Assembly (NCBI GenBank): GCA_963699255.1
Contig: OY969425.1
Location: 30,001-62,000 of the forward strand
From: an uncultured bacterium
GTDB lineage: Bacteria; Margulisbacteria; WOR-1; CAVSGV01
Direction: 5' to 3'
Length of the DNA stretch: 32,000 nucleotides
Under the pieces are notes generated by a model. The model saw only the letters and a list, made by a program, of their open reading frames with translations. It was not told the DNA's origin and made no database searches. Shown piece after piece: positions 107-26,749 of the stretch. The translations under genes and the position numbers were made by a program. The stretch's first letter is position 1; every line of letters begins with the position of its first letter.

Positions 107-3100
107 ATGGGTGAGCAAGTAAGACTGGGAACGACCACGGATTATTATAGTCCGCAGCCGATAGATGTAGGGCACGATAAAGTAACCGGAGAAGAAATAT
201 ACAGGCAGAGAACTTACGCGAAATGCAGCGTGGGCAAACAGAGCAACCTGACATTGGATGCCGCGCTTGATGAGGTTGAATCAGAGAAGATAGATTATCT
301 GAATAAAAAACAGCCGTCACAGGCCTTTGGATGCATGATCCAGGCAGCCGGACTTTACGGGAACAGGGACGACATTGGCGACCGGAAAAAAGCATATTTA
401 TTGCTCCGCAAAATAATAGTCCTGGCAAGCAAAGATACGATAGAAAGAACGAAAAAGACCATTGCCTATGGCGTGCCGGGCGGAGAAATAACAACCGCTG
501 AATTTGCAACATTTGACCCTAAGTTTTTGAAAGATCCCCAGGTGCAGGAAGCCCAGGCGAAGATCGCTATAGCTGATCTGGTCCTGAAGCAGCTGAACGA
601 CAATGAGGTCCCGGATGTTAAGGTTGTAGACCCAAAGATCACAGACGCGACAGCCTACGCGATAAGCTGCTGCCAGTCCGCGAGAACCGCCCTTAACGCG
701 TTTAAATACAAAGACGATTTCAATATAAGCAAGAGCTACATACTAGAGGCAAAATTGATGGCTTTGAGTAAAGCATCGGATGACGATGTCCGCGCGAAAC
801 TTAAGTCAGCGCACATCGATTGGAACGCGATCAAAGACCGCGTTTCGGATGATCCGAATGTCAAAGATGAAAGCCTGAGGCCGGCCGGGATGAGCAAGGA
901 TGACTACATTGAAGAGATCAGGAAAGGCACCGTATACATCAATGCGTGGGCGATGGTTGAAGACGCGCATCTTACCGACCAGAAGGTGAACGTCAGCACG
1001 GAGGACATATCCGCGAAGATAGGTTTATGCAGTGATGCTCATGTAATGCTTTCCGGCAAGGACACGGACAACGGCATAGACAAGGCAAAGGATTATATTA
1101 ACCACGACGCGTTTTTAACAGAGGCGAACCTTACCGCGAAACTTGCCCGCCTTAACATTAATGATCCGGACAAATATAGGGGCGGCTTGAATGACGCAAG
1201 GGCCCTGTATAAAGAAATATCGGAGAAAACCGCGTTCAGTGATATAAAAGCTATCGCGATCGCAGCAAAAATATCCATCGATATGGAGCTTGGCGAATTC
1301 ACATGGGATGACGCGAAAAGTGCTTTAGAGGCTTATTTTGATCCAACAACCAGCACATTTCCCCTTAAATCCCCATTCGCTGAAAATTCATTCACATACC
1401 TGTCCATGGAGCTCCTGGAGGCCCAGCTGAGGAATACAACGCAAAGGAAGAAAGTGTGGGTCCCCGGCTGCGGCGATTGCACATATAAAACGAAGACCGA
1501 AGTTGCTGATTATACCCTCGCGGGGATAAGGACGGACAACGTGAAAAAGGCCATTAAAGCCAGATCAGTTAAGGCGGTCAGGGATCCGGAGGCGCTGAAC
1601 GACCTTAATATCAGGGCAAGTCTTGAACACGCCAGATCAACAGCTTTGGAAGGCATAGCGCTAAGGGACGATATCGCCAAAAGGGCGAAATTCAATGACG
1701 ACGCCATAAAAGAGCTTACGGATATCCTGGGCCCCACCGGCCTTAATGAAACCACGGACAATATATTGAACAATCTCGGCGGCAAGAGAAAAATGGAAAG
1801 CTCCTTCTATGTGACGCTGTGGGGGGAATGGGCGAATTACCTGGAGCAGATAGCGTGGCTGGACAGCAAGGATAAGCCGGGAGACATGAACATATTTAAA
1901 GCCGCCAATGACAAATACGATGAAACAATAAAGCTCTGCGGTTATTCAAAGGCCACATATGACAAAGGGGTAGCGGGGCAGGAAAGCGCCAGGAAGCAAA
2001 TGATAAAGCTTTCCAAGGACAACATTAAAAATTCCGTGGAGAATAATATTGAAGTTGCCGCGCTTACCAACCCGGACGCGCAAAAGGCGATAACCGCTTT
2101 GGATGGTGTTATCAAGAACATCGGCGACTTCAAGATACCGTCCGAGTTCAAAGGCACGCAGCTGGTAAAAATGCAGGCGGAATTGAACAGGAGAAAGCTG
2201 GAGATCCGCTGCAAAGAGGTGTTCTACATAAACAAACAGCCGACCAGCTACCTTTACACCAGCAGCAAGACGAACGCTCCGATCAGCGCGGATGACAAGA
2301 AAAAAGATGTCAGCGCGGATGACAAGATAAAAGATGTCAGCGCGGATGACAAGAAAAAAGATGTCAGCGCGGATGACAAGATAAAAGAGCTGTATCAGCA
2401 GATCAATGACCTGGCGGACAAAACGCTCCCGTACCTGGATACCCCGTATTATTCCATTTTGAACCTGTTCGGGGTGAATTCTGTTTACATGAGGATAAAT
2501 AAAGATGCGGCCGCGGACGAGATAGTCGCGCTGTACGGCAATTATATAAAGGGAAAGGATTTTGAAACAACTTACGACATGATAGACCCCCTTGCGAATG
2601 CCGCTTTAATAAGGACCGGCAGAATTAAAACAGCAAAGGGAGCCGACACAAATCTTAAGGGCGAGATAATGGATTATCTAACTACATTATTAACGGGATC
2701 CAAGACGACGGCTGCTGACAAGGCGAAAGCTTATGTCTGGAAAGCGCGCATGAATGTCTGGTTCAAGGATAGCCAGGATCTAAACCAAGCGTTGAAAGAT
2801 TATGACGAGGCGATCAAACTTTACGGCACTATTACGGACGGCAATAAGCTTTACGGGAACGGCGCGTCAAAACTGGCTGTAATGGAGGAGCGATCGTTCG
2901 CCCAGTTCATGCTCGTGAACGATACCAAGAAAGGCGACGCGAATGCGAAGGATAGAATCGGTCAATACCAGCAGATCGCCAAGTATATCAACGATAATAT
3001 CCTTAAGGGGGCCGCAACGACCGGCTTGAGCGAGGAGATCGCGAAGAAAGTGGATAAGCAGGACGCGGCGGCAAAAATAAAGGCGCGCCTCACCCTGATA

Positions 3101-4486
3101 TCCATGACCATGGGCATCGCCGAACCTCTGAAAAAGGGCCTCCTGGCGGATCCAGTGATGGTCACGGCGGTTACGGATATCTGCGGCGAGAACATCACGG
3201 ACGAGAACAAGCTTTTTGTCAAAACGGAAGAATTGTTCAATAGCGTTACAGCCGATATAAAAAAGCTTGGATTGATCGATACTGAGATGGTGAGCCTGGG
3301 GATAGATGTTCCCACTGTTTACGCGCGCATGGCCGAAAACTACATGATCCTGGCGTTAGAAGCCATGGTGCCTGGCAGAGATATTGATGATGCTGATGAT
3401 TTATTAGAAGACTTGAAGGACGAGAAAGCCTCAATGGAAAATACTAATACCAGCTCAATGCCGGCAAAACGACTCGAACGGTTCAATCAAAACATGAAAG
3501 CGATTTCAGACGCGATCCTTAAAGTAAGTTCCGCCCTGACTCAAGTTCAGAGCAAGAAGAACATTATTGCCCAGAACGCGCAAAAATACATCGAAAATAT
3601 GAACAACTATTTAACTAAAGCTGCAAGTATCGCGGAAAAGGACGCTAACAGCTTAGCGCAGGCTAAAGCCCTTCTTGTTCAGGCGCAATACGCAGGCTGG
3701 ACTGCGGGAAGTGATATTGACAAGTTAAAGGTAGCTCGAGGGTTATATGAAAAAGTCATCAGCATAAATCCCGTCGCTATGGATATGAAGGCGAAATTGG
3801 ACTATGCCGGCGTGATCTCGATCATATCGTTAAGGCTCCTGAAAACTGACAAAACAGCGGCGGCGGATGTAGCCAATATAGCCATAAGCAAATATAAAGA
3901 GGTAAAGACGAATGACGATATCGCTCTTGGCGCCAGGGCTTGCATAGAAATGGCGAATCTTCAAGCTGCGTTCGCAGTTGAAGATGGGACCAAGCTGAGG
4001 GAGGCGCGGGCAAGTGTCTACGACGCCCTTATAAAACTTACAGGATCGAAACAGGATACCATGGGATACATTAACCTGGTGAACGGCATGATCAACCTGA
4101 ATAAGCCCGTCGATAAAACAATAATACAAGCCCTCTGCTATCTTGGCGTGATCGAAGCCAGATTGTACACGTCAAAGACTAACCTGACGGAGCCGCAAAG
4201 ATTGGCGGGGTATAATGCGATAAAAGGGATTATGGGCGGGATCGGAACTGTTACCGGCGGCATATACGGTATTATCAAGCAGCAGAATCTGGAAGGTGAC
4301 GCCTCATTGAAAGTAGTTATGAAGCAATTTATGGATTTTAAGGCTGAGGTGGTGCTTGCCTGGGGAGATGCCGGAGGAGACGAGTCAACTGATGAATATA
4401 AACAGGCAAGCTACAAAACGTCTAACTATGATGCCAGGGTGCAAGAAGCCATAGAGAAATTAAAAAAATTAGAGGATATAAAATAG
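107..4486 (+). CDS. 1459-aa helical, TPR-like repeat protein of unknown function, no signal peptide
   Basis: ATG at 107 is preceded by AGGGGGA (93-99), followed by 4.4 kb of open frame. The protein is K/D/A/E-rich with recurring TPR-like signatures (KAYVWKARMNVWFKDSQDLNQALKDYDEAIKLYG; ANDKYDETIKLCG; ARGLYEKVISINP). It contains an internal SADDK(K/I)KDV x4 repeat and a C-terminal glycine-zipper GIMGGIGTVTGGIYGII. I recognise no family by eye. Confidence 0.85.
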   Translation: MGEQVRLGTTTDYYSPQPIDVGHDKVTGEEIYRQRTYAKCSVGKQSNLTLDAALDEVESEKIDYLNKKQPSQAFGCMIQAAGLYGNRDDIGDRKKAYLLLRKIIVLASKDTIERTKKTIAYGVPGGEITTAEFATFDPKFLKDPQVQEAQAKIAIADLVLKQLNDNEVPDVKVVDPKITDATAYAISCCQSARTALNAFKYKDDFNISKSYILEAKLMALSKASDDDVRAKLKSAHIDWNAIKDRVSDDPNVKDESLRPAGMSKDDYIEEIRKGTVYINAWAMVEDAHLTDQKVNVSTEDISAKIGLCSDAHVMLSGKDTDNGIDKAKDYINHDAFLTEANLTAKLARLNINDPDKYRGGLNDARALYKEISEKTAFSDIKAIAIAAKISIDMELGEFTWDDAKSALEAYFDPTTSTFPLKSPFAENSFTYLSMELLEAQLRNTTQRKKVWVPGCGDCTYKTKTEVADYTLAGIRTDNVKKAIKARSVKAVRDPEALNDLNIRASLEHARSTALEGIALRDDIAKRAKFNDDAIKELTDILGPTGLNETTDNILNNLGGKRKMESSFYVTLWGEWANYLEQIAWLDSKDKPGDMNIFKAANDKYDETIKLCGYSKATYDKGVAGQESARKQMIKLSKDNIKNSVENNIEVAALTNPDAQKAITALDGVIKNIGDFKIPSEFKGTQLVKMQAELNRRKLEIRCKEVFYINKQPTSYLYTSSKTNAPISADDKKKDVSADDKIKDVSADDKKKDVSADDKIKELYQQINDLADKTLPYLDTPYYSILNLFGVNSVYMRINKDAAADEIVALYGNYIKGKDFETTYDMIDPLANAALIRTGRIKTAKGADTNLKGEIMDYLTTLLTGSKTTAADKAKAYVWKARMNVWFKDSQDLNQALKDYDEAIKLYGTITDGNKLYGNGASKLAVMEERSFAQFMLVNDTKKGDANAKDRIGQYQQIAKYINDNILKGAATTGLSEEIAKKVDKQDAAAKIKARLTLISMTMGIAEPLKKGLLADPVMVTAVTDICGENITDENKLFVKTEELFNSVTADIKKLGLIDTEMVSLGIDVPTVYARMAENYMILALEAMVPGRDIDDADDLLEDLKDEKASMENTNTSSMPAKRLERFNQNMKAISDAILKVSSALTQVQSKKNIIAQNAQKYIENMNNYLTKAASIAEKDANSLAQAKALLVQAQYAGWTAGSDIDKLKVARGLYEKVISINPVAMDMKAKLDYAGVISIISLRLLKTDKTAAADVANIAISKYKEVKTNDDIALGARACIEMANLQAAFAVEDGTKLREARASVYDALIKLTGSKQDTMGYINLVNGMINLNKPVDKTIIQALCYLGVIEARLYTSKTNLTEPQRLAGYNAIKGIMGGIGTVTGGIYGIIKQQNLEGDASLKVVMKQFMDFKAEVVLAWGDAGGDESTDEYKQASYKTSNYDARVQEAIEKLKKLEDIK
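2285..2392 (+). repeat. In-frame tandem repeat, 27-bp unit x4 (equivalently 54 bp x2)
   Basis: agcgcggatgacaag(a/at)aaaa(a)gatgtc is repeated head to tail and encodes SADDKKKDV-SADDKIKDV-SADDKKKDV-SADDKIKEL. The first three units are exact apart from the alternating KKK/KIK codon. Confidence 0.95.
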
Positions 4487-4499
4487 GGGAGACGAAAAA

Positions 4500-6587
4500 A
4501 TGAGCTCAGCCGGTAGAATATCAGGTTCCATGTACCAGACGTTTTCTAGCGATTCCATCGCTCAGGATACCGTACACATACGCAACAATAAAATATCAAA
4601 GGAAGACCTGAAAAGGATAACGTCGCAGAAGGATGCGAACAGTAAAACAGTTTCTATCGTTTTCGATCAGAACGAAGTTGGCAAGAATGACCAGAGTCAA
4701 ACCCAGCCGCAGGGCCAGCAAACACAGACCCAGCCAAAGGATACGACAAACAATGTGACCAGGCAGCCGTTCGAGTTCCCCGGATGGAAAGATGCCGAGC
4801 AGCTAAAAAAATATCAAGAGATCGAAAATGACATTCTTTGCGCGGATATAAACTATTATAACGGCAACATACCGGAATTTCACAAATACAGCGATTGGGC
4901 TATAGGTAATGGATATAAAAAGGATTCACCGTCAGGAAAGCGGTTTTGGCCCCAATTCAGGGAAATATCGCTCTATACCAAACCGATCATCCAAGTGTCC
5001 AGTTATTGGTCCAAAAGCAATATCAGGCCGGAATTTGTGAATTTTATAGATGAGAATAATATGGGCGCGGATGGGAAGATGCTGACGGACGGGGTGAAGC
5101 AGCCCTGGGAAAAATACTCATACATTTATAATGCCGATAGTACTAAGATAATCAGGCCCGATTATAAATTAAGCGATGTTAAACAGCCGCAGAACGCGTT
5201 GACAACGCAGGTCTCATACATAATCCCGAATTTTGACTTTGAGGGCAAAGGTTTTAACACCAAAAATGCCAAAGACCGGATACTGGACCTTCAGGGGACC
5301 CTGATCGTGGACCTGCTCAAGACCGACTACAACGGGACCCTCAACACAGGGTTCAACTTATACTCTTTTATCAATCCCGATCATCCTGAATATACTCTGA
5401 ATTACCTGAAGAAACTTAACGGGAATGAATATACGGCATGCGAATTCGGGCCTGTTTATTCCCAGCATGTGTTATTCGGACTCGCCCAGCCTTTGTTCGG
5501 CACGCTTCCCGAAATGCCTCAAGCGATCCGCTGGCTGGTCCCTATTTTAGTGAACAAGCTGTCGGCAACATATGAGAACACACTGACGGAAATGAGCATG
5601 AGAGCTTTTCCGAATTACGCGTACAACGAATCGACAAAGAACCTGGCGAATTATATATACGATTATGCACACAATGAATCCACCAACATCCTGGCGCCGG
5701 AGGGAATTAAGGGACTTTTTGTCAGCGACCTCCAGTCTCTCACGCTTGGTTTTGAGTCTCGAACGCTGACGATGTTAAAGAACAAATGGCCGTATTCGAT
5801 ATATCCCGCCCTGATATTCAAGTATAAATTCTCCTGGCTTTCCAGCAACATGCCGGACCCGTATTATCTGTCCGAAAAGTATTATGTCCCGCCTTTTTAT
5901 GATAAGGACGTTAAGCTTACCCAGGCCCAGAGGGACACCATAATGAACGATTATGTCAATAATTACCTGCCGGAGAGAAGTGAAAATAAGGGACTTACCG
6001 CCAACGAGATGACTCTCGGCGCGAGGGTGAATTTCCCGGGCTTTGCGCAGCTCCTTACCGGCATGGGGATCCTGAGCATCCCTGACGGAGGGGCCGACCA
6101 GACAAAGACCCTTTTTCAGTACACCATCACCGGTTATGATCCGATACGGAACACGGGGGGGAACGGGCTTTCCCCGGCATATCTGAACCACTTCGCGGAG
6201 TATCATCTGGATGAGTCCGGCAACCTTGTGAAGGTGGGCAGCAACTATCACGCGCCGATAGAGCCGTATAAAGGGCATTCATGGCGTTTTTCACTGGACA
6301 ACAATATCAGACTGAGCAAGGGCCCCGATCTGGATGATAAGGGAAATGACATAACCACAGGGATCTACATGCCTGTTGGATTCAGCATAGGCGGAGGCAG
6401 CTACACGGTGGGTGGAGTTAAGAAGCACTCGTCCGAGTGGAGCTTCAATATAGGACTGGGCATAACGGACCAGGCGACCTTAAGATACACCATATCCAAG
6501 AACAACAACGGGTATGATTATGATGAGGCCGTTCAATCCTTGACGTTCACATGGATGTTCGACGAACCGAAGAAACATAAGAAATGA
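4500..6587 (+). CDS. 695-aa hypothetical protein, beta-rich and aromatic/Asn/Gly-rich, no Sec signal peptide, disordered Q/T-rich N-terminus
   Basis: ATG is 14 nt after the upstream stop, with a GGGGAG RBS (4486-4491). The N-terminus MSSAGRISGSMYQTFSSDSIAQDT has no hydrophobic h-region. A QSQTQPQGQQTQTQP low-complexity tract follows. The C-terminal third shows alternating hydrophobic patterns (SEWSFNIGLGITDQATLRYTIS, SLTFTWMF). Confidence 0.85.
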   Translation: MSSAGRISGSMYQTFSSDSIAQDTVHIRNNKISKEDLKRITSQKDANSKTVSIVFDQNEVGKNDQSQTQPQGQQTQTQPKDTTNNVTRQPFEFPGWKDAEQLKKYQEIENDILCADINYYNGNIPEFHKYSDWAIGNGYKKDSPSGKRFWPQFREISLYTKPIIQVSSYWSKSNIRPEFVNFIDENNMGADGKMLTDGVKQPWEKYSYIYNADSTKIIRPDYKLSDVKQPQNALTTQVSYIIPNFDFEGKGFNTKNAKDRILDLQGTLIVDLLKTDYNGTLNTGFNLYSFINPDHPEYTLNYLKKLNGNEYTACEFGPVYSQHVLFGLAQPLFGTLPEMPQAIRWLVPILVNKLSATYENTLTEMSMRAFPNYAYNESTKNLANYIYDYAHNESTNILAPEGIKGLFVSDLQSLTLGFESRTLTMLKNKWPYSIYPALIFKYKFSWLSSNMPDPYYLSEKYYVPPFYDKDVKLTQAQRDTIMNDYVNNYLPERSENKGLTANEMTLGARVNFPGFAQLLTGMGILSIPDGGADQTKTLFQYTITGYDPIRNTGGNGLSPAYLNHFAEYHLDESGNLVKVGSNYHAPIEPYKGHSWRFSLDNNIRLSKGPDLDDKGNDITTGIYMPVGFSIGGGSYTVGGVKKHSSEWSFNIGLGITDQATLRYTISKNNNGYDYDEAVQSLTFTWMFDEPKKHKK

Positions 6588-6631
6588 GCCGCGCTTTAAG
6601 GATTTTCCCGTCCAGAAAAATCATTAAAAAC

Positions 6632-6659
6632 TGAAATTCTTCATAAGATCCGACGATAA
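6632..6659 (+). promoter_or_regulatory. sigma28-class-like promoter upstream of the 6722-8527 gene
   Basis: TGAAATTC (6632-6639), 12-nt spacer, GACGATAA (6652-6659). It ends 62 nt before ATG 6722 and lies in the 134-nt intergenic gap. Confidence 0.45.
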
Positions 6660-6721
6660 TATAGTATAGGGAAAAAGCGTCTTTCGGGCTTGAGCGTAGC
6701 ATATAAGGAGATAAACAGTAT

Positions 6722-8527
6722 ATGGACCCTATTAATAGTATATCGAATAATTCCCTGTTATATCAGCAGAGCGATACGACCTCCTCGGCGCAGGATACAA
6801 CAAAAAAGGCAAAGGTCAAGGTCGTGCCTCAGCCAAACCCCCATCCCCAAATTGACGCGTTCAACAAACCGGTGTTCGGGACCGGGGACATTTATTTTGT
6901 CGACAAAATCGAATGGCAGCCTTTCGGGAACGAAGTGTGGAACATAAAGGATTTCGGGAACGGGAACGATCTTGTCAATAAGAGCTCTGTCGGGCTCGGG
7001 TTGGGCGCGAACCTGACAATTCCCAGCATCGGACTTCTCAATGCTTTATCGGTGAATTATGATAACGCCGATTACACGTACGGAGGGGGCGACGCCGGGA
7101 ACAACAGGAACTTCAGCTTAAACTTGCAGACGCTGATCCCCGAAAAAAAATATCTCGATAAGGTCTTTCCATCAATAAGCGGCGACCCGCTGTTCAAGGG
7201 CAAGGAATGGTACCAGCAGCCGGCAGAAGCGCTCAGGATGTTGTGGAGATGGCCGTCCTACCTGAAAGATCAAGTGGATGGTCTTTCGGACGGCTGGAAG
7301 GCGGTCGGCATGCTTGCGGACATTCCGCTGACCGTATTAAAATTTGCCGCCGAGGATATCCCGAATTCGCTCATCGGCGGGCAGGTAAGATATTCATTCA
7401 TTGATAACAGCGAGAGGGATATCCCGAACTTTTATGATCCGTCCGTGAAAGCCGCGGGCATTAACTTGAACGCGTACTGGGCCCTGGGCAATTCTTCTTT
7501 TATAACGACTTCATACGAGCGCAGGCTGGGCACAAAGGAGTACACGCTTGGGCTTCCGCACAGGTCCGACGACAGGAACTGGGCGGTCCGCTTTGACGCG
7601 CCGAACATTCTGGATGAGAACTGGGGACTTTCTTTCCTGAGGCTCCATCCGTGGGCGGAGTTCAGGAAAGGACGGGATCAGCTGCAGATATCCTCCAGCT
7701 CCACTGTCACAACAACGGAAACGGACCCGATAACCCTGGTGGAATCAGACACGACGAATAATGTGTCCGGCAGGGCGGCCGAAATACAGATCGCGTATTC
7801 AAAGCTCAGCGGCGGGGTCAACATGTATCTCTTTGATAACAGGCTGGAGGCGGGAGTGGCACTTTCAAAAGAGACGCGCCAGATGCAGAAGGACAGGCAG
7901 ACCACCGAATATCATCTGACCTACGGGCCGGCGACCTTGAAATACTCGCAGATCCAGAACCCGATAATGTTCTACCATATGAACACGAACCTGCCGGAAG
8001 AACAGAACAGGTTCGAATTTGAATTCGATCCAAGGTACTACACTGGCAGTGCCGGGCAGTTCATTCCCAGCGTGGTCATCGGCTATGAGAAAACATGGGT
8101 GGATAACGGCGGTTTGCGTACCATTAAGGACAATTTCCCGTATTTCGGCATAAAGTTCTCATTGAGGCTGTCCGGCAGGAAGCAAAAACAGGCGGTATGC
8201 AACTACGGCAATGAACAGTTCATTAACGCTTCGGACGTTACTAACATCATGGGGAACAATAAATACACCTCGGACAGGTATCTTACGTATAAGATCGTGC
8301 AGAACTTGAAGATCGATCATGAAAAAGCACTGAAGACATGCATCTACAACATGTTGCCGAACGCCGATGATATAACAAAAGCCAAGGACAAGGAAAGAGC
8401 GAAATTAGATGACTACATAAAGGACTTCAAAACAATAGTCAGGCAGAAAGGCCTTGCTTCTGATGAGGCGACAGCAAAGAAAACCGAGATAGATAAGTAC
8501 ATAAAGGAGCTGTCAACTACCAAATGA
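6722..8527 (+). CDS. 601-aa hypothetical protein, beta-rich core with a Lys-rich helical C-terminal tail, no Sec signal peptide
   Basis: AAGGAG RBS at 6704-6709. The N-terminus MDPINSISNNSLLYQQSDTTSSAQDT resembles that of the preceding protein. Porin-like alternating segments are present (SVGLGLGANLTIPSIG, YFGIKFSLRL). The C-terminal ~90 aa are K/D/E-rich and helical. Confidence 0.85.
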   Translation: MDPINSISNNSLLYQQSDTTSSAQDTTKKAKVKVVPQPNPHPQIDAFNKPVFGTGDIYFVDKIEWQPFGNEVWNIKDFGNGNDLVNKSSVGLGLGANLTIPSIGLLNALSVNYDNADYTYGGGDAGNNRNFSLNLQTLIPEKKYLDKVFPSISGDPLFKGKEWYQQPAEALRMLWRWPSYLKDQVDGLSDGWKAVGMLADIPLTVLKFAAEDIPNSLIGGQVRYSFIDNSERDIPNFYDPSVKAAGINLNAYWALGNSSFITTSYERRLGTKEYTLGLPHRSDDRNWAVRFDAPNILDENWGLSFLRLHPWAEFRKGRDQLQISSSSTVTTTETDPITLVESDTTNNVSGRAAEIQIAYSKLSGGVNMYLFDNRLEAGVALSKETRQMQKDRQTTEYHLTYGPATLKYSQIQNPIMFYHMNTNLPEEQNRFEFEFDPRYYTGSAGQFIPSVVIGYEKTWVDNGGLRTIKDNFPYFGIKFSLRLSGRKQKQAVCNYGNEQFINASDVTNIMGNNKYTSDRYLTYKIVQNLKIDHEKALKTCIYNMLPNADDITKAKDKERAKLDDYIKDFKTIVRQKGLASDEATAKKTEIDKYIKELSTTK

Positions 8528-8566
8528 TGTTAGAAAAAGTAAGGGGTGTAAAAGGGGGAATAAGAT

Positions 8567-9418
8567 ATGCCTATTAGCGCATTATCATCGGACTCAACAA
8601 GCACGGTAAAGCCGGTTATTTTAAATAATAATTTAGCAAAATCTGATTCGACAAAGACGGATTCAACGTACGTCATGCCGCTGGTCTACCCTGACGGCAC
8701 TTTCAACCAGAAACCGGCTAAAGGGAAAAAAGAGGCAAATACCTGGGGGATAACTCCTCTCATTACCGAGGATCAGAACAGGAATGGCGGCACTGTAGGG
8801 GCTAATGTGGATCTCTGGCGCTTGATGTCGAAGGACGATAAGGGCACTTTTGACTTCGGCGTTGAGAACAGGATGGGCAAGGATCTCAGCACCAATAAGA
8901 ACATGTTGAGCAAAGATCTTAATGTATACGCATATATTGATCCGGGCGTGTGCAAGATCGGGACGTTCAATAGGAACCTGAAATTCCTTGGCGAGCTTCA
9001 GATAAGGCCGACCGTGGACCTGAATTACGGCTATAACTCAGAGTTCAAAACGAACAGACTTGATGGTTTCGGGTCGTTCGCAATGGGGCTTAATAAACCG
9101 TTCCAGTCCGACAAGTTCAAACTTGTCAATTACTTTGGCTTTACTGTGGCTTATTCCGGAAGCGCCGCGCTGAGCGGAAAAAAGATGGATGTTCTCCTGG
9201 GAAATTATGAGGATAACGGGGAGGCGGCGGACAGGGAATTATCGGTGAAAACAGAGATACGGTTCGCGCCGAAACCGGGTTCAAGTATCTTTGATTTCGC
9301 GGACATATATATGAAGAACAATCTTGGGAGGGACCCCTTCAATCCGTATCTTACTTCGAGAGAGAAATTCAGGCTCGGGGGGTATCTTCAGCGTCGACAG
9401 GAGCAGGTTTATCCTTGA
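8567..9418 (+). CDS. Fragment 1 of a frameshifted ~646-aa hypothetical beta-rich protein (whole gene 8567-10507)
   Basis: GGGGGA RBS at 8553-8558. The N-terminus is MPISALSSDSTST, with no signal peptide. The frame is lost at the G6 run 9377-9382, and sensible sequence continues in the next frame (..REKFRLGG|IFSVDRSRFILDVEAYK..). Confidence 0.75.
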   Translation: MPISALSSDSTSTVKPVILNNNLAKSDSTKTDSTYVMPLVYPDGTFNQKPAKGKKEANTWGITPLITEDQNRNGGTVGANVDLWRLMSKDDKGTFDFGVENRMGKDLSTNKNMLSKDLNVYAYIDPGVCKIGTFNRNLKFLGELQIRPTVDLNYGYNSEFKTNRLDGFGSFAMGLNKPFQSDKFKLVNYFGFTVAYSGSAALSGKKMDVLLGNYEDNGEAADRELSVKTEIRFAPKPGSSIFDFADIYMKNNLGRDPFNPYLTSREKFRLGGYLQRRQEQVYP

Positions 9419-9947
9419 CGTGGAGGCTTATAAGGCGCCTTCATATTATGCGGGTGATCCTTACAGCAAGAAGCTTGACCTGGATGCGTTCCTCAGATAT
9501 CAAATAGTTAATTGGGATAATAAGAAGAGCGGAGAGAACAGGAGATCCGTGGTCATTACCGGGGATGTGTCCTCGACCGGTATCTTCGGATGGTTGAACA
9601 AGGGATATCCATTTTCGCCCATTCTTTTGGAGCTTACCGCGAATATCGACCTTGGCTGGGGCCATATCAATGGATCATATCAACATATATTTAAAAGCAA
9701 ACATGTGAACGATGGACCGGTAGAGCTGATCCAACCGGGGCTTCAGACCGTGACAGCCCAATGGAACGGCATCTCGGTGGATATGTCCGGCGGGCCGTAC
9801 CAGACCACGAAAGAGGTAAGTCTTACAGCGGAGAAAATCTATGCGGATCCTAACTCCAAGCCGCAGATCACCATAAATGCGGGTAATGTGGATTATCAGA
9901 TAAGAGCCTTAGGACGGGGCCGGATGCGATCGGTGAAAATGCTCTGA
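9324..9947 (+). CDS. Fragment 2 of the same frameshifted gene (genuinely coding about 9379-9916)
   Basis: The protein-like sequence YYAGDPYSKKLDLDAFLRYQIVNWDNKK...ITINAGNVDYQIRALG joins fragment 1 at the G6 run. It leaves the frame at the G4 run 9916-9919. Confidence 0.7.
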   Translation: MGGTPSIRILLRERNSGSGGIFSVDRSRFILDVEAYKAPSYYAGDPYSKKLDLDAFLRYQIVNWDNKKSGENRRSVVITGDVSSTGIFGWLNKGYPFSPILLELTANIDLGWGHINGSYQHIFKSKHVNDGPVELIQPGLQTVTAQWNGISVDMSGGPYQTTKEVSLTAEKIYADPNSKPQITINAGNVDYQIRALGRGRMRSVKML

Positions 9948-10159
9948 CCACGTGGCAGGACGGCGGATCGGCTCCTGTTAAACTATATGTAAGGAGCGTA
10001 AAGCTTATTGACAATGCCCATAACCGTATCTGGGGCCTTAATTCTGCCGGAAAATGGGTACCGCTTTCAGGGGCTCAGCCTACAACGTCGCCGGAAATCC
10101 TGCCGGAATCGAAATTTAATCTCTCCGGCGGATCGCGAACATTCACTTTTCCGGCGGAT

Positions 10160-10507
10160 ATGTGGTCAAGCCTCTTAAGCGATGGAACAAGAAGTTTTAC
10201 CGTGAAAGTGGAATACGGCGCTGATATTTCAAAGCTTCCCCCAGATATAAATGCTCTTAAAAAATACACCTCGGGGAGCAACAGAGTATTGGTCTGGGAT
10301 CCAGATCAAGGTGTCGGGTATGTGCATGATAATTACGTTAGGTGGGACGCTCAAGGCGGATGGGCAGCGTATCATTATGATGACATCAACAGGATCGTAG
10401 TTGATCCGTATGACCCGGCGCAACCGAACGATCCTAATACGAACCCGTATTATGTCGGGCTCATGAAACTGTCGACGATATTCCTTGGAACTACATTGCA
10501 GTATTAA
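10160..10507 (+). CDS. Fragment 3 of the same frameshifted gene (this frame is open from 9887; continuation begins about 9917)
   Basis: My hand translation upstream of Met 10160 gives GPDAIGENALTTWQDGGSAPVKLYVRSVKLIDNAHNRIWGLNSAGKWVPLSGAQ..TFTFPADMWSS. This continues fragment 2 if one G is added at 9916-9919. Confidence 0.7.
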   Translation: MWSSLLSDGTRSFTVKVEYGADISKLPPDINALKKYTSGSNRVLVWDPDQGVGYVHDNYVRWDAQGGWAAYHYDDINRIVVDPYDPAQPNDPNTNPYYVGLMKLSTIFLGTTLQY

Positions 10508-10633: not shown

Positions 10634-11053
10634 ATGCGCATAAAAAATTTATTGATAGGGTTAATGACGGTAATGCTGACGGCGATGCTGTCATCTGCCG
10701 CGTTCGCGGTGCTGGATCCCGCGTCAGGCACTTCAACCCCGAACGGTGATTTTATTTTTGTCCCCAACCAGACGAACACCGCGTCGATAGAGGTAGTAAG
10801 GACGTCCGATGATGCTGCGGTGCAGGCGATCAACGTTGCAAGCGGAACCCCGGCCAGCATGGCGACTTCCCCGGACGGAAAAACCCTTTTTGTCGTCGTT
10901 GCCGGAGCTACAGGAAGCAGGGTAAGGGCCTACAGCATAGGTTCCACAGAGCCTTACTTCTTTATCCTATACGGTACTGAGCTCCACCTACACCGCAGGA
11001 AGGCAGTGCGCCATCACCCCCGACGGAAAATACCTTTATGTGGCGAACTATGA
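10634..11053 (+). CDS. N-terminal fragment of the giant surface protein: signal peptide plus first YVTN beta-propeller blades
   Basis: ATG 10634 is preceded by AGGAAGG (10622-10628); the ORF track starts at TTG 10616. MRIKNLLIGLMTVMLTAMLSSAAFA is a classic Sec signal. SPDGKTLFVV is a YVTN-type repeat motif. After about 10955 the frame becomes implausible (..FFILYGTELHLHRRKAVRHHPRRK) while the giant ORF frame reads ..CAITPDGKYLYVANY. Confidence 0.75.
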   Translation: MRIKNLLIGLMTVMLTAMLSSAAFAVLDPASGTSTPNGDFIFVPNQTNTASIEVVRTSDDAAVQAINVASGTPASMATSPDGKTLFVVVAGATGSRVRAYSIGSTEPYFFILYGTELHLHRRKAVRHHPRRKIPLCGEL

Positions 11054-14000
11054 TGATTCATTCGCGGGCGCAGGCAGGAGGGTTTACATACTTGATGTTT
11101 CAAATCCTTCAGCAATGACCGTTGCGGGCAGTTTCCAGGTCGCCGCTTCGGATTCCACGGTCAACCTCTGGGGAATAGCCATAAAACCGGACGGCACAAG
11201 GCTTTATGTGGGAGACAGGTACAACTACTACGGTTATTACAAGGTGTGCGTCTACAACATAGCGGGTGCGAACAGAACAAGTCCCCAGCATGTTACGGAC
11301 ATAAACCTTGGCACGACCAAGAACCCGACCTATCTTGCCGTGAATACGGACGGGAACAGGTTATTCGTGAAAGTGGATGAGACAGCGGATCCGGGCGACG
11401 GCGCCAGAAAAGACGTTGAAATGTACGATATTTCAGGCCCCACGCCTGTGCTTATGGCGGAGGTTTATAAGATAACGGGAAATAATTACAGAAGCTACCT
11501 TCCCGGGGACCATCTTCCAACCGGCAACGATCTGGACACGAGGAACGGCAGCGAGGGTATGGCATTAAGCCCCAACGGCTGGTTCATGTATTTTTCAAAT
11601 TTTAACGGGCCTTCCGGCGACGGGAGCCTTTACTATCGGGATACTTTATACGGCTCTTCGATCGCTAATTTAACGAACGGTTTTGACAGGACAAATCCGG
11701 GGGACATCTGGGTAAGCTGGGGCGGATGCACACAGGAGTCCCCGGCCATCTGGAGCGGATGGCATTCTTCCGACGGCATCATCGCCACAAGAAACAATAA
11801 AGTTTATTTTACTTACAGCGATGTAAGCGTGACCCCGGAATATCTCAGCGTGCCGACGACGACCGACGCGAATATTCCCCCGACAGCGCCGAAAATAACC
11901 TATCCTCTGCCGCAAGCTACTAATGTTTCCGGTTTCATTACCTGGGAGCCTTCGCTGGATGACGGCATCGGTCCTCACGGATTAACATACACCGTTGAAA
12001 CCATAGAAGCTTCGACTCTGGAAGGCGGAACAACCGCCTGGAATCACATGGCTTACACCGCGACGGGCGAGGTATATACGCCTCTTATCGGAGTCAAGCC
12101 CGGCGGAACGTATTATGCCAGAGTGCAGGCTTTTGACGGCACATATACCAGCCCATGGTCCTATACGGGGCCGTTCACCATGGATGCCAATTTCCTTTTG
12201 CCACCCACATGGGAGAGCTCTTATCTGATCACATCCAGAGAAGCGGTGATCGACTGGGCAAGTGTTGCGGCGGCCGACAGTTACATTATCCAGTATAGGA
12301 TAACAGGCGAAGCGACCTGGCACAGCACGTCTGCTATAGCAAGCACATACAGGTATAATTCGACAGATCCAAATCCGAACTATAGGCTTACGAACCTTAC
12401 TCCGAGCGCGACCTATGAGGTGAATTTAATCGCGGTTAGGAGCGGGGTCAAAAGCGTCCCGTCTTCAAAGCCTTATGTTTCTTTCTACACGCTGGAAGAG
12501 CCGTGGGTGAGCCACGCCAGGGTCACGTCGACAGAGGCATATATATTGTGGGGACCTGAGGTAAGCACATTGGAGCTGAATGTTCCGAACGCTGTCAATT
12601 ATGAATGCTGGTACAGGATACAGAATGCGCCTGTGGACTGGACAAGAGTCACATGGCCTTCCGGAAAGCAGGACAGTACAACAATGACAGTGTTGAACGC
12701 CAAGCTGAGCGGCTTAACGGCGTCCACCACATATGAGGTCAGGATGAGGACCGTAGATGCATATGGCGGGCGCTCTCTCTGGTCGCCAATTCATGATGTG
12801 TACACGATGGAGCGGCCGTGGGTGAGCCACGCAAAGGTCACATCAACAGAGGCGTATATATTGTGGGGACCCGAAGAAAGCACTTCTTTTAATATACCCA
12901 ATGCCGCCAGCTATCAATATCAGTATATGAAGAAAACGGATACCTCATGGACCACCGGTCCCGAGCCTCTCAGCAAGAGAGACGATGGAACTATGCCCGT
13001 ATTGAATTTTAAGCTGAGCAATTTAACGGCGTCAACCACATATGAAGTTCAGATGAGAGCGTTGGATGTCTATGGCCGCACTTCCGACTGGTCAGCGACG
13101 GATGAAGTGTATACTCTTGAGAGCCCGTGGGTGAGCCACGCCAAGACGTCAACGAACGAATCGTACATATTGTGGGGTTCCTCGACGAGCTTTGAAGTTA
13201 GGAACGCCACTACCTACGAAGCAAGAGCCAGAATAACATCCAGCGCTTCGTGGGATGCGGTCCCGATCAAAGGGGTGCCTCGATATAATCGCGATGACGG
13301 CACCATGTCGCCGACGTTAAACATCAAATTAAGCTCGTTGCTCGGATTTACTCCGATAGTAAACACTACATATGAGGTCAGGATGAGGGCGAGAAATGCC
13401 GGCGGAGCATCTGACTGGTCCGCCACAAATGAAGTGTATGTGCTGGGGACCCCGTGGGTAAGCGCCGCGAAGGTCACATCGAAAGAGGCGTATATATTGT
13501 GGGGGCCGGTAGGCGAGACCGGGCTGGATGTGACCGGAGCTACAAGTTATCAGTGCTGGTACAGGGTGCAGAATGCGCCTGTGGACTGGACAAAGGTCAC
13601 ATGGCCTGTCGGCAAGCAGGACGATAGGACAATGGCAACGTTGAACGCCAAGCTGAGCGGCTTAACGGCGTCCACCACATATGAGGTCCAGATGAGGGCG
13701 GTTGGATCAGGAGGATACTCTGACTGGTCGCCTATCTATGATGTGTTCACATTTGAGCGGCCCTGGGTGAATCATGCGAACGTCAAAGCGACAGAAGCAT
13801 ACATATTATGGGGGCCTGAAGAAAGCGCTTCTCTTAATATACCCAATGCCGCCAGCTATGTGTATCAATACAGGAAGCCGGCGGATACTTCATGGACCAG
13901 CGGTCCCGAGCCTCTAAGCAAGCAGGACGATGGGACCATGCCCGTGTTGAATTTTAAGTTAACGGGCTTGACGGCGTTGACCACATATGAAGTTCAGATG

Positions 14001-17000
14001 AAAGCGCTGGATTCTATCGGCCGCAGCTCAGACTGGTCCGCCACAAACGAGGTGTTCACACTTGAGTGCCCGTGGGTGAGCCACGCCAAGACGTCAACGA
14101 ACGAAGCGTACATATTATGGGGTTCCACGACGAGCTTTGAAGTGATAAACGCCACGACCTACGAAGCCAAAGCCAGAATAGCATCCAGCGCTTCGTGGGC
14201 TTCCATACCGTCGATAGGGGTTCCGCGATATAACCGCGATGATGCCACCATGTCTCCTACGCTGAACATCAAACTAAGCAAGCTGCTTGGTTATGCTCCG
14301 ACTACCGGCGTTACCTATGAGGTAATAATGAGGGCGGATGGACCGGGAGGATACTCCGACTGGTCGGCCACACATGAGGTGTTCATGCTTGAGAGTCCAT
14401 GGGTGGGGCACGCCAAGGTGGCGACCAATGAGGCGATAATATTGTGGGGCGCCACGACCAGTTTCGAGGTTCAAGGGGCTACTAGCTATCAGGCTATGGC
14501 ATGCGCCAAGAACGGGGCATGGCAGCCGATAGTGAGCGTGCCTAACTTTAATATCGATGATGGGACCATAAGCCCGACGGCTACAAGTATGTTCAATATC
14601 AAATTAAGCAAGTTGCTCGGATCAGCTCCGACACTGAACACTACTTATGAAGTAATGATGAGAGCGGTCGGATCCGCGGGTTACTCCGACTGGTCAGCCA
14701 CTCATGAGGTATATATATTGGGGGCCCCATGGGTAAGCCACGCTAATGTTACAGCAACGCAGGAATATGTGTTATGGGGTCCGATAGGCCAAAGCGGCTT
14801 GAATGTGACCGGCGCGGTAAGTTATGAATATCAATACAAGAGAAAGATAGATACTTCATGGATCGGCGGCTCCGAGCCTCTCAGCAAGAGAGATAATATT
14901 TTGATGAGTTGCTTGAACTTCAGGTTGACCGGTTTGACGGCGTCAACCACATATGATGTTCAGGTGAGGTCGGTCGGGACATACGGTCGCTCCGACTGGT
15001 CTGCCACAGATGAAGTGTACACTCTTGAAAGCCCGTGGGTGAGCTACGCTAACATAACAACAAATGAAGCATCCATATTGTGGGGTTCAACGTCGAGCTT
15101 TGAAGTGATAAATGCGGCAACATATGAAGCTAAAGCCAGGATACAGGGCGGCGCTTCGTGGGATACCATCTCGTCCATAGGTGTGCCGCGATATAACCGC
15201 GATGATCCAACTATGGCTCCAACATTGAACATAAAATTAAGCAAGCTGCTCGGAATTGCTCCGACATCGGGCGTTACTTATGAAGTAATTATGAGAGCGG
15301 ATAATGCCGGCGGAGTTTCAGACTGGTCAGCCACAGCTGAGGTGTTCATGATAGGGACCCCGTGGGTAAGCCACGCGAAGGTTTCGTCTAAGGAAGCTTA
15401 TGTGTTGTGGGGACCGATAGGTCAAAGCGGTCTGGATGTGACCGGAGCCTCATCTTATGAATGCCGATACAGGATAAAGGGAGCGCAGGTGCCGTGGACA
15501 ACGAAGATCGAGCCTCTCGGCAAGCAGGACGATCCGACAATGCCTGTATTGAACTTCGAGCTTAGCAATTTAACGCCGTCCACAACATATCAGATCCAGA
15601 TGAGGGCGGATGGAACAGGAGGGAACTCCGGCTGGTCGGCAACAGATGAGGTGTATACTCTGGAGACCCCGTGGGTGAACCATGCGAACGTCAAAAAGAC
15701 AGAAGCATACATAATATGGGGATCGATAAGCGGAGGGTTGGACGTTCCCAACGCCGCCTATTACAAATATCAATACAAGAAGCTGTCGTCCGCGGTATGG
15801 ATGAGCGGTACTCAGCCTCTCGGCATGAAAGACGATCCATCAATGGCCGTGTTGAACTTCAGGCTGGCTGGATTAACGGCATCGACCTCGTATGAGGTCC
15901 AGATGAAGGCGGTAGACGCCCTCGGCGGCGAATCCGACTGGTCGGCCATTGATTATTTCATAACGATACAAGGCCCGTGGTGGATAGATGTAAGCCATGT
16001 AACCGGAACATCCGCTCTTATTTCCTGGGATAATACGGCTCCGGGAGTGACACAGTATGATCTTAGGTACAGCACGGCCCCGTCGGCGGAACTCGGGACA
16101 GCGGTCCTTACTACGGATGCCCAGCTTGCCGTCACCGGTCTTAGTACGAATACACAGTATTACGCGAAAGTGAGGGCGATAACCGCTGCCGGCCCGAGCA
16201 GCTGGACGAGTGTTGCGCCCTTCTTTACAAATCCTGTTGTAGGCCCGTCATGGATAGCTGCTTTCAATACGACAACAACAGCAACAATGGTCACGTGGGA
16301 AGGTGTATCCGGCGCAACATCGTATGAAGTGAATTACGGGATAAATACCATGCCCATGGTGTGGACTTCCTGGGCTCCGTCGCCGCAGGATCAGAATTAC
16401 GGCGGTCCTATTACAGGATTGAACCCGAGGACATGGTATAACCTGAGGGTCAAGCTGCACAGCGGCGCAAGCGCAAGCGAGTGGTCACCCACGGCGTTAT
16501 TTTATACGATACCCGCTCCGACCGGTGTTACACAGATAGGCTCCACCGTGACCACAGCGACCATTACATGGGAGCCCGTGGACATGGGCGGAGGAACGCC
16601 CGCACCCGCTTACGAGATAAGCTGGGGCGTGGATGCTACTGCTTCCGGAAGCGGTGATGCCGTAACGGGCAACATTAATTATACTATGACAGGATTAACG
16701 ACCGGCTTAACATATTATGTGACGGTCAGGGCACGCGAGAGCTCCAATCCTTCCGATGGATACAGCGATTGGTCCCCGTATCCGGCACTGCAGGTAGTGG
16801 CATCGGGAACCATGGGTCCTGTCGCTCCAGCGTGGTCAAGCCATTACCTGGTCACTTCGAATGAGGCGGTGGTGAACTGGGGAAGCGTTGCACTGGCGGA
16901 CCATTATATCGTGCAATATAAGAAATTGACCGATGCGACCTGGGCCAGCGTAGAGGTGCTAAGCACATATCAATACAATACAGCCGATACGAACCCGAAT

Positions 17001-22493: not shown

Positions 22494-22521
22494 TGAAATT
22501 TATCCAGCGATCGGTCGATAA
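22494..22521 (+). promoter_or_regulatory. Distal sigma28-class-like promoter copy upstream of the PorV-like/SLH gene
   Basis: TGAAATTT (22494-22501), 12-nt spacer, GTCGATAA (22514-22521). It lies exactly 80 bp upstream of the proximal copy and shares the 11-mer AAGTGAAATTT with it. Confidence 0.4.
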
Positions 22522-25759: not shown

Positions 25760-26749
25760 ATGTGTATGGTAGAATGTAACAAAATGAAGAGATTTGAAAG
25801 GGTGGGCATTGTAGGTCTGGCGCTGTTCCTGTCCCTCGCAAGCCTGCCGGCCGGCAGGCGGGGGGAGGCTTTTGCGTTCTCATCCCCTCCATCAAAAGAA
25901 AAGTCGGAAGCGCCAAAAGTGGTGAGCAGGTTCAGTGCGCCTCCTGCCGAAACAGATTGGCCCACCTTCCACGGGGATGTGGACAGGAACGGCATATCTC
26001 TTGCTAAATACATCAAGCCGCCGCTTTCTGTTAAGTGGGGATACTCCACCGGCGGGAACATATGGTCTTCTCCAGCCGTGGTCGCGGACACGCTCTTTGT
26101 CGGGTCGTCTGACGGCAAGCTGTACAGCCTGGACGTCGGGGACGGCAATATGCGCTGGGCGTTCAAGACGGGAGGCGCGGTATTCTCTTCTCCGGCAGTC
26201 GACAAAGGGAACGTATATTTCGGTTCGTCGGATCACATGTTTTACGCCCTGGATGCCGATACAGGGGACCTGAAATGGTTTTTTGAGACCGGCGACCAGA
26301 TAACATCATCACCCGCGGCCTATGAAGGCAGGATTTATTTCGGTTCGTGGGACGGCTCCATGTATGCCTTAACGGATAGCGGAGGACTGAAGTGGAAATT
26401 CCAGACTGACGGCGCCATATATTCATCTCCCGCTCTGGCTTACAAGAAGGTCTTTTTCGGCTCATCTGACGGCAAGGTGTACGCGCTGGACAGGGAAAAA
26501 GGAACCCTGTCTGGACGTTCCAGACAGACGACAACATTTCCGCGACCCCGTCCATCTCGGGGAAGGTCATTTATATCGGGTCATGGGACGGCAGCATGTA
26601 CGCTCTGGGCAGCGAGGACGGGAAGCTGTTATGGAAATTCAGGACCGGGGGAGGGGTTTATTCTTCGCCGGCGATATTGGACGATACGATCATTTTTGGT
26701 TCGTATGACGGCAAGCTATACTGCCTTGACAAACAAACGGGCGCGCTAA
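25760..26749 (+). CDS. N-terminal fragment of a frameshifted PQQ-like 8-bladed beta-propeller protein (whole gene about 25760-27903)
   Basis: GAAGGGGG RBS at 25750-25757; the likely start is ATG 25766 or 25784. The signal peptide is VGIVGLALFLSLASLPAG. Blades have the form SSPAV..g.vyfGSsDgklYALD..tG.lkW.F.T. After EKGTL (about 26509) the tracked frame turns into Arg/Ser/Thr-rich junk. Confidence 0.75.
   Translation: MCMVECNKMKRFERVGIVGLALFLSLASLPAGRRGEAFAFSSPPSKEKSEAPKVVSRFSAPPAETDWPTFHGDVDRNGISLAKYIKPPLSVKWGYSTGGNIWSSPAVVADTLFVGSSDGKLYSLDVGDGNMRWAFKTGGAVFSSPAVDKGNVYFGSSDHMFYALDADTGDLKWFFETGDQITSSPAAYEGRIYFGSWDGSMYALTDSGGLKWKFQTDGAIYSSPALAYKKVFFGSSDGKVYALDREKGTLSGRSRQTTTFPRPRPSRGRSFISGHGTAACTLWAARTGSCYGNSGPGEGFILRRRYWTIRSFLVRMTASYTALTNKRAR

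Follow-up and report, generated by a model that had tools for sequence, protein, structure and literature searches.

How does a bacterium make use of three large, beta-rich proteins, encoded one after the other, when none of them carries a signal for leaving the cytoplasm? This question is raised by a 32,000-nucleotide stretch of DNA from an uncultured bacterium of the Margulisbacteria (lineage WOR-1, CAVSGV01; contig OY969425.1, positions 30,001 to 62,000), which we will call the window, and by three genes in it that we will call A, B and C. The product of A is predicted to be a transmembrane beta-barrel of the outer-membrane type, with a hydrophobic exterior. Sec, Tat and lipoprotein signals are absent from the block to which the three genes belong, and this absence is specific to the block and conserved across all its relatives. 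The leading reading that we infer from these two observations is export by a non-Sec route. The three genes are:

4500..6587, forward strand: gene A, 695 amino acids, predicted outer-membrane-type beta-barrel without signal peptide (open reading frame call and model)
6722..8527, forward strand: gene B, 601 amino acids, without signal peptide (open reading frame call)
8567..10507, forward strand: gene C, 646 amino acids after frameshift repair, without signal peptide, ending in ...TTLQY

The AlphaFold2 model of A was obtained from an alignment of 16 sequences, an alignment of three sequences having given a predicted local distance difference test score (pLDDT) of 36, which is unusable. With the larger alignment the pLDDT is 74.9 and the predicted template modelling score 0.76, and 243 residues have a pLDDT of at least 90. 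From the N-terminus to the C-terminus, the protein is composed of the following parts:

4500..4634, forward strand: N-terminal peptide, residues 1-45, with the motif DSIAQDTV; the best-conserved part of A
4791..4979, forward strand: helical, TPR-like segment, residues 98-160, following the disordered residues 1-92 (DSSP and pLDDT)
4986..6557, forward strand: beta-barrel, residues 163-686, about 14 long strands, each 11-23 residues in length; the final strand ends in ...LTFTWMF (AlphaFold2 model)

When this model was compared with the PDB by Foldseek, 145 matches were obtained at E<=1e-3, and all 50 that were listed are outer-membrane barrels. They include FadL (5e-9), TodX, the autotransporters EstA and EspP, Occ/OprD, FapF and TonB-dependent receptors; BcsC, PgaA and PelB are absent among these 50. 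The first-pass annotation of this DNA had considered that the three proteins might be cytoplasmic with a new fold, and had proposed structure prediction and a Foldseek search as the check. Run for A, this check yields an outer-membrane-type barrel and no enzyme fold, and the idea of a new cytoplasmic fold is not supported for this protein: the modelled fold is a known one, and the matches listed for it are all outer-membrane barrels.

The averaged sequences of the A family are consistent with the model. In every one of the 14 strands there is a stretch of 9 residues of which one face is hydrophobic and the other polar, the means being +0.7 to +2.7 on the hydrophobic side (at least +1.15 in 13 of the 14) and -0.6 to -2.5 on the polar side. 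In a wide barrel, such alternating faces would give A its hydrophobic exterior. The family also has a strand-ending h-x-h-x-[RK]-F pattern, present in 14 of the 16 members and placed at the exact C-terminus in 8 of the 16, which resembles the beta-signal of outer-membrane proteins (OMPs). As for the helices that precede the barrel, their TPR-like character is suggested by weak, sub-threshold Pfam matches in several members and, in the PDB, by a faint match with one TPR protein. The polar, disordered N-terminus that had been described for these proteins is thus found in A over residues 1-92, but it does not lead directly into the strands, the helical segment coming first.

A porin-like strand pattern had been claimed for all three proteins. 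For A it is now borne out by the predicted structure, whereas for B and C it is seen as a sequence pattern, and both are probably beta-rich as well. To judge from its sequence, B has a strand-like middle and, from about residue 485, a Lys/Glu-rich and probably helical C-terminal tail, which stands where a C-terminal beta-signal would be and leaves B without one. C-family proteins end in ...TL[QNK]Y. We also tried a count of amphipathic beta-windows as a barrel test for B and C, but it did not separate barrels from ThiC or from helical proteins and was rejected. The composition computed for A, B and C (Tyr 5-6.6%, Asn 7-8%, Gly 7-9%, Cys 0.2-0.3%) agrees with the richness in Tyr, Asn and Gly first reported, and the sizes given at that time (695, 601 and about 646 residues) are also correct, that of C being reached by joining at two G runs. 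Indeed, gene C is called in three pieces (8567-9418, 9324-9947 and 10160-10507), and the frame switches in a G6 run (9377-9382) and in a G4 run (9916-9919); the pieces joined there encode 646 residues. Unbroken homologues of 641 residues align across both junctions, so the reconstruction is right. A hidden Markov model (HMM) of the C family matches all three fragments and positions 16038-17960 of the related locus L092 (related loci bear L numbers throughout), and that of the B family recovers the gene after A in L089, L088 and L092; even in distant loci, B and C are thus recovered where they are expected.

The absence of signal peptides was assessed by a proxy, the highest Kyte-Doolittle hydrophobicity that any 10-residue stretch reaches among the first 45 amino acids. 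The values are 0.09-0.82 for A, B and C and 2.8-3.1 for the TIG, PorV-SLH and PQQ proteins encoded further downstream. In eight related loci, the A, B, C, helical and glycoside hydrolase (GH) proteins are all at or below 1.35, and the FN3 giants all at 3.0-3.3. One A-family member known from the protein search alone (P0016) reaches 1.67, and no A-family member begins with a hydrophobic segment. The absence of a signal from A, B and C, as first noted, is therefore borne out by their low N-terminal hydropathy and by its conservation in the related loci. The two genes that border the trio are:

107..4486, forward strand: gene called 'up', 1459 amino acids, rich in Ala, Lys, Asp and Leu, probably an alpha-helical repeat protein, without signal peptide (open reading frame call)
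10634..19754, forward strand: FN3/TIG giant surface protein, 2904 amino acids, with a classical signal peptide (MRIKNLLIGLMTVMLTAMLSSAAFA)

These five genes, 'up', A, B, C and the FN3 giant, are consecutive and on one strand. The neighbours of the trio had all been said to carry textbook signals. This holds downstream, where the FN3 giant and the TIG, PorV-SLH and PQQ proteins each have one (as do the orthologues of the FN3 giant in L004, L005, L090 and L092), but not upstream, where the 1459-residue product of 'up' has none and is itself part of the block. The TPR matches obtained for 'up' are all faint. It is the first gene of the block within the window, which starts in the intergenic DNA before it; a stop lies 4 codons 5' of its start, and positions 1-106 are closed in all frames.

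The starts of A, B and C are well defined. In-frame stops are found 6, 5 and 0 codons upstream, respectively, and purine-rich ribosome-binding sites precede the three genes (GGGAG at 4487-4491, AAGGAG at 6705-6710 and GGGGGA at 8554-8559). The earlier statement that these starts leave no room for a missed signal is thus upheld. Overlooked upstream signal peptides are ruled out by the stop positions together with the homologous loci.

What the three proteins do have at their N-terminus is a short peptide in common. The first 30 residues of A are 77% identical to those of its L005 orthologue, against 49% for the whole protein. An HMM of three A N-termini, searched against 1444 open reading frames (ORFs), found a single other significant match, the N-terminus of the B-family protein of L004 (E=7.5e-5), and after one iteration the N-terminus of the window's own B was the top remaining match (E=0.08). 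The pattern D[ST][ITS]x2-4D[ST][ITVY] occurs 9 times in the 358,882 ORF residues of all loci, each time at residues 15-35 of A, B or C. These comparisons indicate that three unrelated families of one lineage share a short, acidic, Ser/Thr-containing N-terminal tag. A peptide of the form QGD[ST]I[AV]K.DTIP heads both a B-family protein (L004, 9977-12001) and an A-family protein (L002, 118-2094), and the tag seems to move between unrelated proteins.

Sequence comparison places A, B and C in families of their own. None has a match in PHROGs, nor in Pfam or NCBIfam even at E<=10, and none has a PDB match by sequence search; the GTDB representative genomes, scanned with the A alignment, gave no match either. 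A word-indexed search of 5.8 billion proteins returned only 2-3 relatives for each of the three, and HMMER, run in full with the A profile over 1.84 billion representative proteins, returned 15 relatives in total. Paralogy between A, B and C was considered and rejected: no relation is found by BLAST or by hhalign profile-profile comparison, hence three separate families, which by these criteria appear to be unrelated and new. A viral or capsid origin was likewise rejected, there being no PHROGs match and only OMP-like proteins, without any capsid protein, in a structure search of BFVD; the locus is moreover chromosomal and syntenic with housekeeping genes, which counts against a virus. In the literature on signal-less bacterial outer-membrane barrels, we found no description of such a system.

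The block that contains these genes also evolves in a particular way. We compared the window with one fully syntenic JGI contig (L004/L086/L098), whose ThiC falls in the same 90% cluster, and obtained the following amino acid identities:

ThiC, ThiL, M20 peptidase, NUDIX, PQQ and PorV-SLH proteins: 82-93% (ThiC 93%)
FN3 giant: 72%
C: 51%
TIG protein: 50%
B: 46%
A: 28%
'up': 24%

Among the GTDB representatives, by comparison, the best identity to the window's ThiC is 60%, reached in many different phyla. The gradient between the two syntenic genomes is sharp. Against L004/L086, positions 107-10507 encode proteins at 24-51% identity, and the flanks at 22664-31783 proteins at 82-93%, so that the block has the appearance of a hypervariable island between conserved flanks. 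Such hypervariability is usual for exposed or conflict-related proteins, and divergence of this kind between close relatives suggests that the cluster stands at an interface with phages, hosts or competitors.

The gene order around A, B and C is kept in L002-L005, L088-L094 and L098, and the cluster can be described as follows:

Gene 1: membrane-associated giant, 1340-2619 amino acids
Gene 2: protein of 885-1243 amino acids with a GH8 (BcsZ-like) or GH26 domain
Gene 3: helical protein, 1400-1750 amino acids (the orthologues of 'up' have 1415-1754 and always stand before A)
Genes 4-6: A, B and C, the N-terminal helical half of C being sometimes a separate gene
Gene 7: FN3/TIG giant with a signal peptide, always next after C

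For the window's own genome, the GH and membrane genes are inferred from the close relative L098. The membrane giant has 3-4 hydrophobic helices near its C-terminus in L090 and L092, and no hydrophobic helix above threshold in the parts covered of its L089 and L098 orthologues; it has no Pfam, NCBIfam or PDB match. Directly upstream of the cluster, L094 has a gene for a UDP-sugar pyrophosphorylase-like protein and one for a GlgA-like GT5-UDPGP fusion. The more distant L095 also has a GT5-UDPGP fusion upstream, plus radical-SAM, GT2 and epimerase genes. A weak CBM_11 match is sometimes seen in the FN3 giant or in the adjacent downstream gene. Taken together, these genes form a conserved cluster of at least eight, with glycoside-hydrolase and sugar-nucleotide genes, a context that the first-pass annotation had not recognised.

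Several variations on this arrangement can be observed. The hydrolase of the second gene differs by lineage, being of the GH26 type in some (L089, 1994-4774; L098, 1544-4531) and of the GH8 type in others (L090, 1716-4862; L094, 11571-14228), and the polymer or target may differ accordingly between lineages. L095 (11503-15471 and the downstream ORF) and L097 represent a distant system that shares the membrane protein (28-30% identity), the GH8 protein and the GT5-UDPGP fusion. Whereas the GH proteins in the A-B-C clusters are signal-less, the GH8 protein of L095 and the one encoded after it carry signals of the lipoprotein type. Finally, the C protein of L004 (12040-16023) has a helical N-terminal extension of about 690 residues that is absent from the window's C; this helical part is a separate gene in L090 (13650-16613 and 16719-18347, by BLAST) and apparently, by position, also in L092 (14128-17960), which indicates gene fusion, fission or loss within the cluster around it.

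How can such a cluster function? A, B and C would be structural envelope proteins, A being an outer-membrane-type barrel with a short TPR-like part at its N-terminus. The signals being absent and the N-terminal motif common to A, B and C, a dedicated non-Sec route can be proposed, by which the three proteins would reach the envelope, the peptide serving as an address or assembly tag. They would there form an outer channel or an anchor for a surface layer made of glycan and FN3 protein. The parts of the cluster (hydrolase, alpha-repeat scaffold and barrel) would then work like the export apparatus of synthase-dependent exopolysaccharide systems. That A, and probably B and C with it, are envelope barrels of a glycan/FN3-protein surface system, delivered by a non-Sec route marked by the N-terminal tag, is the proposal we favour, while giving it slightly under an even chance. 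That the proteins lie in the envelope, how they would be exported and what the cluster would do with glycan are in each case what we infer, from the missing signals, the barrel predicted for A, the conserved gene order, the hypervariability and the common motif, which are shown.

According to PMC9384988, the hallmarks of a synthase-dependent system are a synthase in the inner membrane, modifying enzymes in the periplasm, an alpha/alpha-repeat domain and a barrel porin in the outer membrane. In BcsC, PgaA and PelB, or in the pair AlgK and AlgE, accompanied by periplasmic hydrolases such as BcsZ (GH8), an alpha-repeat (TPR-like) part precedes a C-terminal barrel, as the TPR-like segment appears to do in the model of A. 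The likeness extends to the GH8/GH26 protein of the cluster, to its very large helical proteins, to its membrane-anchored giant and to the sugar-nucleotide and glycosyltransferase genes found upstream in relatives. The differences are just as clear. A has only about 60 helical residues and no sequence similarity to these families, no GT2 synthase or cyclic di-GMP module is seen in the core cluster, three barrel candidates are present instead of one, and no component has a signal peptide, the FN3 giant aside. The comparison is thus one of analogy: the cluster may work like a synthase-dependent exopolysaccharide system, but we do not count it as a member of that class, on grounds of sequence, strand number, the absent synthase and, above all, the absent signal peptides.

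Other barrels were also compared with A. The 14-stranded FadL, TodX and PorV barrels give its best Foldseek matches (E 5e-9 to 1e-7) and have a similar number of long strands, but the TM-scores are 0.26-0.43 with a root-mean-square deviation of about 14 A, there is no Toluene_X or PorV Pfam match, no N-terminal hatch is evident, and A lacks the signal that the window's own PorV-like protein (22664-25252) possesses. Membership of A in this family was rejected on account of the low TM-scores and the missing Pfam match. With the classical BAM-assembled OMPs, A shares the predicted barrel and the beta-signal-like C-terminus, and it differs from them by having no Sec signal peptide. VDAC, Tom40 and Sam50, examples of outer-membrane barrels of mitochondria and plastids, are barrels without a cleavable signal, recognised by a C-terminal beta-signal and inserted by an Omp85-type machine. 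These are, however, eukaryotic organelle proteins imported from the cytosol via TOM, whereas A, B and C are bacterial and chromosomally encoded and would need to cross the inner membrane first. GfcD/EpsX-type porins are separate outer-membrane barrels for polysaccharide export, encoded in glycan clusters (PMC9601211, PMC9603273), but their partners are OPX proteins and pathways of the Wzx/Wzy or ABC type, which were not seen here, and they carry signal peptides, unlike A, B and C.

A number of observations weigh against the proposal of exported envelope barrels. To begin with, all bacterial outer-membrane barrels studied so far, to our knowledge, cross the inner membrane via Sec with an N-terminal signal peptide, and we know of no pathway that brings signal-less barrels to the bacterial outer membrane. 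The structure prediction covers A alone of the cluster's proteins. Its Foldseek TM-scores are low (0.25-0.45), which leaves the fold class clear but assigns no family, so that A can only be called a generic outer-membrane-type barrel; its strands number about 14, against 16 in BcsC and PgaA, and most of its connections are long at both ends of the barrel. In half of the A family, the terminal Phe is followed by further residues. As the sequences had been viewed before the N-terminal motif was defined, its significance is overstated, and in the most distant loci it cannot be seen. Finally, the core cluster yielded no processive GT2 synthase, glycosyltransferases appearing only in the distant L094 and L095, and the GH proteins are likewise signal-less, which would equally fit a cytoplasmic system.

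This last point leads to the alternative that survives best, which we nevertheless judge to be unlikely. The block in its entirety, from the GH protein and the helical giant to A, B and C, could remain in the cytoplasm or at the cytoplasmic side of the inner membrane, where it would handle an intracellular glycan such as a storage or structural glucan; the barrel of A would then be a soluble or peripheral module through which glycan is threaded, and no export would be needed. At least five consecutive gene products have no signal, no secretion-system gene is seen at any locus, and the enzyme encoded upstream in L094 and L095 is a soluble fusion of GlgA-like GT5 and UDP-sugar pyrophosphorylase, typical of cytoplasmic polymerisation. 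All this would fit such a location. Outer membranes are, however, the only place known for single-chain barrels in which 14 long strands enclose a polar lumen and turn a hydrophobic face outwards, and in A the OMP identity of all listed structural matches goes together with a conserved beta-signal-like C-terminus. It would also be unusual for cytoplasmic machinery to diverge as this block does, at a far higher rate than the housekeeping genes on its flanks. In addition, the gene next to it always encodes the secreted FN3 giant (with the occasional weak CBM_11 match in the giant or its neighbour), and the GH8 protein of the distant L095 has its lipoprotein-type signal.

The fast evolution of the block could also be read as that of a weapon. 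A, B and C would be pore-forming proteins delivered, with GH8/GH26 domains that degrade wall or matrix, by contact-dependent transfer into the envelope of another cell, and delivery of this kind would explain both the absent Sec signal and the divergence. The hypervariability relative to the flanks, the missing signals, the swapping of GH8 and GH26 domains between lineages and the small genome (a 1.77-Mb contig) are all compatible with this. We consider it improbable, as no type III, IV or VI secretion system and no contractile system is found near any locus, no immunity-like small genes are seen, a resident structure better accounts for the strict gene order and for the giant helical scaffolds, and no toxin is known to take the form of a single-chain OMP-type barrel.

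The first-pass annotation had further compared the disordered N-termini, in combination with a sigma28-type promoter, to late flagellar-type export substrates. The site behind this remark is probably the following:

6633..6659, forward strand: sigma-28-like site upstream of B, GAAATT...CGACGATAA, with 2 mismatches to TAAA-N15-GCCGATAA

It is a 2-mismatch match and not the consensus, of which no exact copy exists in the window. There are 7 such 2-mismatch matches in the window, against 3.4 expected, a number reached in 6 of 100 shuffles, so the excess is not significant. The link to flagellar export is not supported either: no flagellar or type III secretion gene is found in the window or in about ten related loci, and A has a barrel fold without the helical domains of flagellin-like or hook-like proteins. 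That A, B and C are late substrates of flagellar type III export under a sigma-28 promoter, as their disordered N-termini and the site upstream of B might suggest, is thus extremely improbable. Sites of the form GAAATT-N13-15-(C)CGATAA/T are found in intergenic DNA at 14-40, 6633-6659 and 22495-22521, that is, upstream of 'up', of B and of the PorV-SLH gene, and may represent a lineage-specific promoter common to envelope genes.

An equally negligible chance is left to an artefact of annotation or assembly, in which homopolymer frameshifts would hide 5' extensions with signals: genes of the window are indeed broken at G/C homopolymers, but the gaps between the preceding stop and the starts of A and C (13 nt and 39 nt) cannot encode a signal peptide, independent assemblies from other samples (L002-L005, L088-L094) have the same signal-less N-termini as maximal ORFs, and the frameshifted FN3 and PQQ genes retain visible signal peptides. 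The window has four frameshifts, all of them at G/C homopolymers: C contains two, the FN3 giant one (near a C5 run at 11017-11021) and the PQQ gene one (26647-26656). The sequence of L001, an independent Logan contig, agrees without a difference with the window over 2359-9381 and stops inside the G6 run. Long-read homopolymer error is the likely cause of these frameshifts, and poly-G phase variation of a surface gene a possible one.

Some features of the neighbouring genes can be added. Within 'up', a 27-bp tandem repeat of 3.9 copies (2283-2388) encodes KKDVSADDK units, and the TIG gene contains a direct duplication of 264 bp (21320-21842). The TIG protein (19780-22179) and the PQQ beta-propeller protein (26596-27903) both have a C-terminal domain resembling FlgD_ig/Por_Secre_tail. 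Between them, the protein encoded at 22664-25252 has a PorV/UPF0164-like N-terminal region, which is probably a barrel, followed by five SLH domains. These domains suggest C-terminal sorting similar to that of type IX secretion, in a bacterium that tethers its outer membrane via SLH domains.

To return to exported envelope barrels and to the question from which we started, conserved barrels without a signal would mean one of two things: either an unrecognised route of export and assembly, for which the N-terminal tag is a candidate address, or the first cytoplasmic use of this fold. It is conceivable, though we hold it doubtful, that a dedicated Sec-independent pathway recognises the barrels, and the giant helical proteins that go with them, by the D-S/T-I...D-S/T-I tag, and takes them to the envelope or into the membrane of another cell. 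If this were true, it would be a new bacterial route of protein export and outer-membrane biogenesis, built around a cluster of at least eight genes that has not been described before. The cluster would also add three protein families, and an envelope or glycan system, to what is known of uncultivated bacteria.

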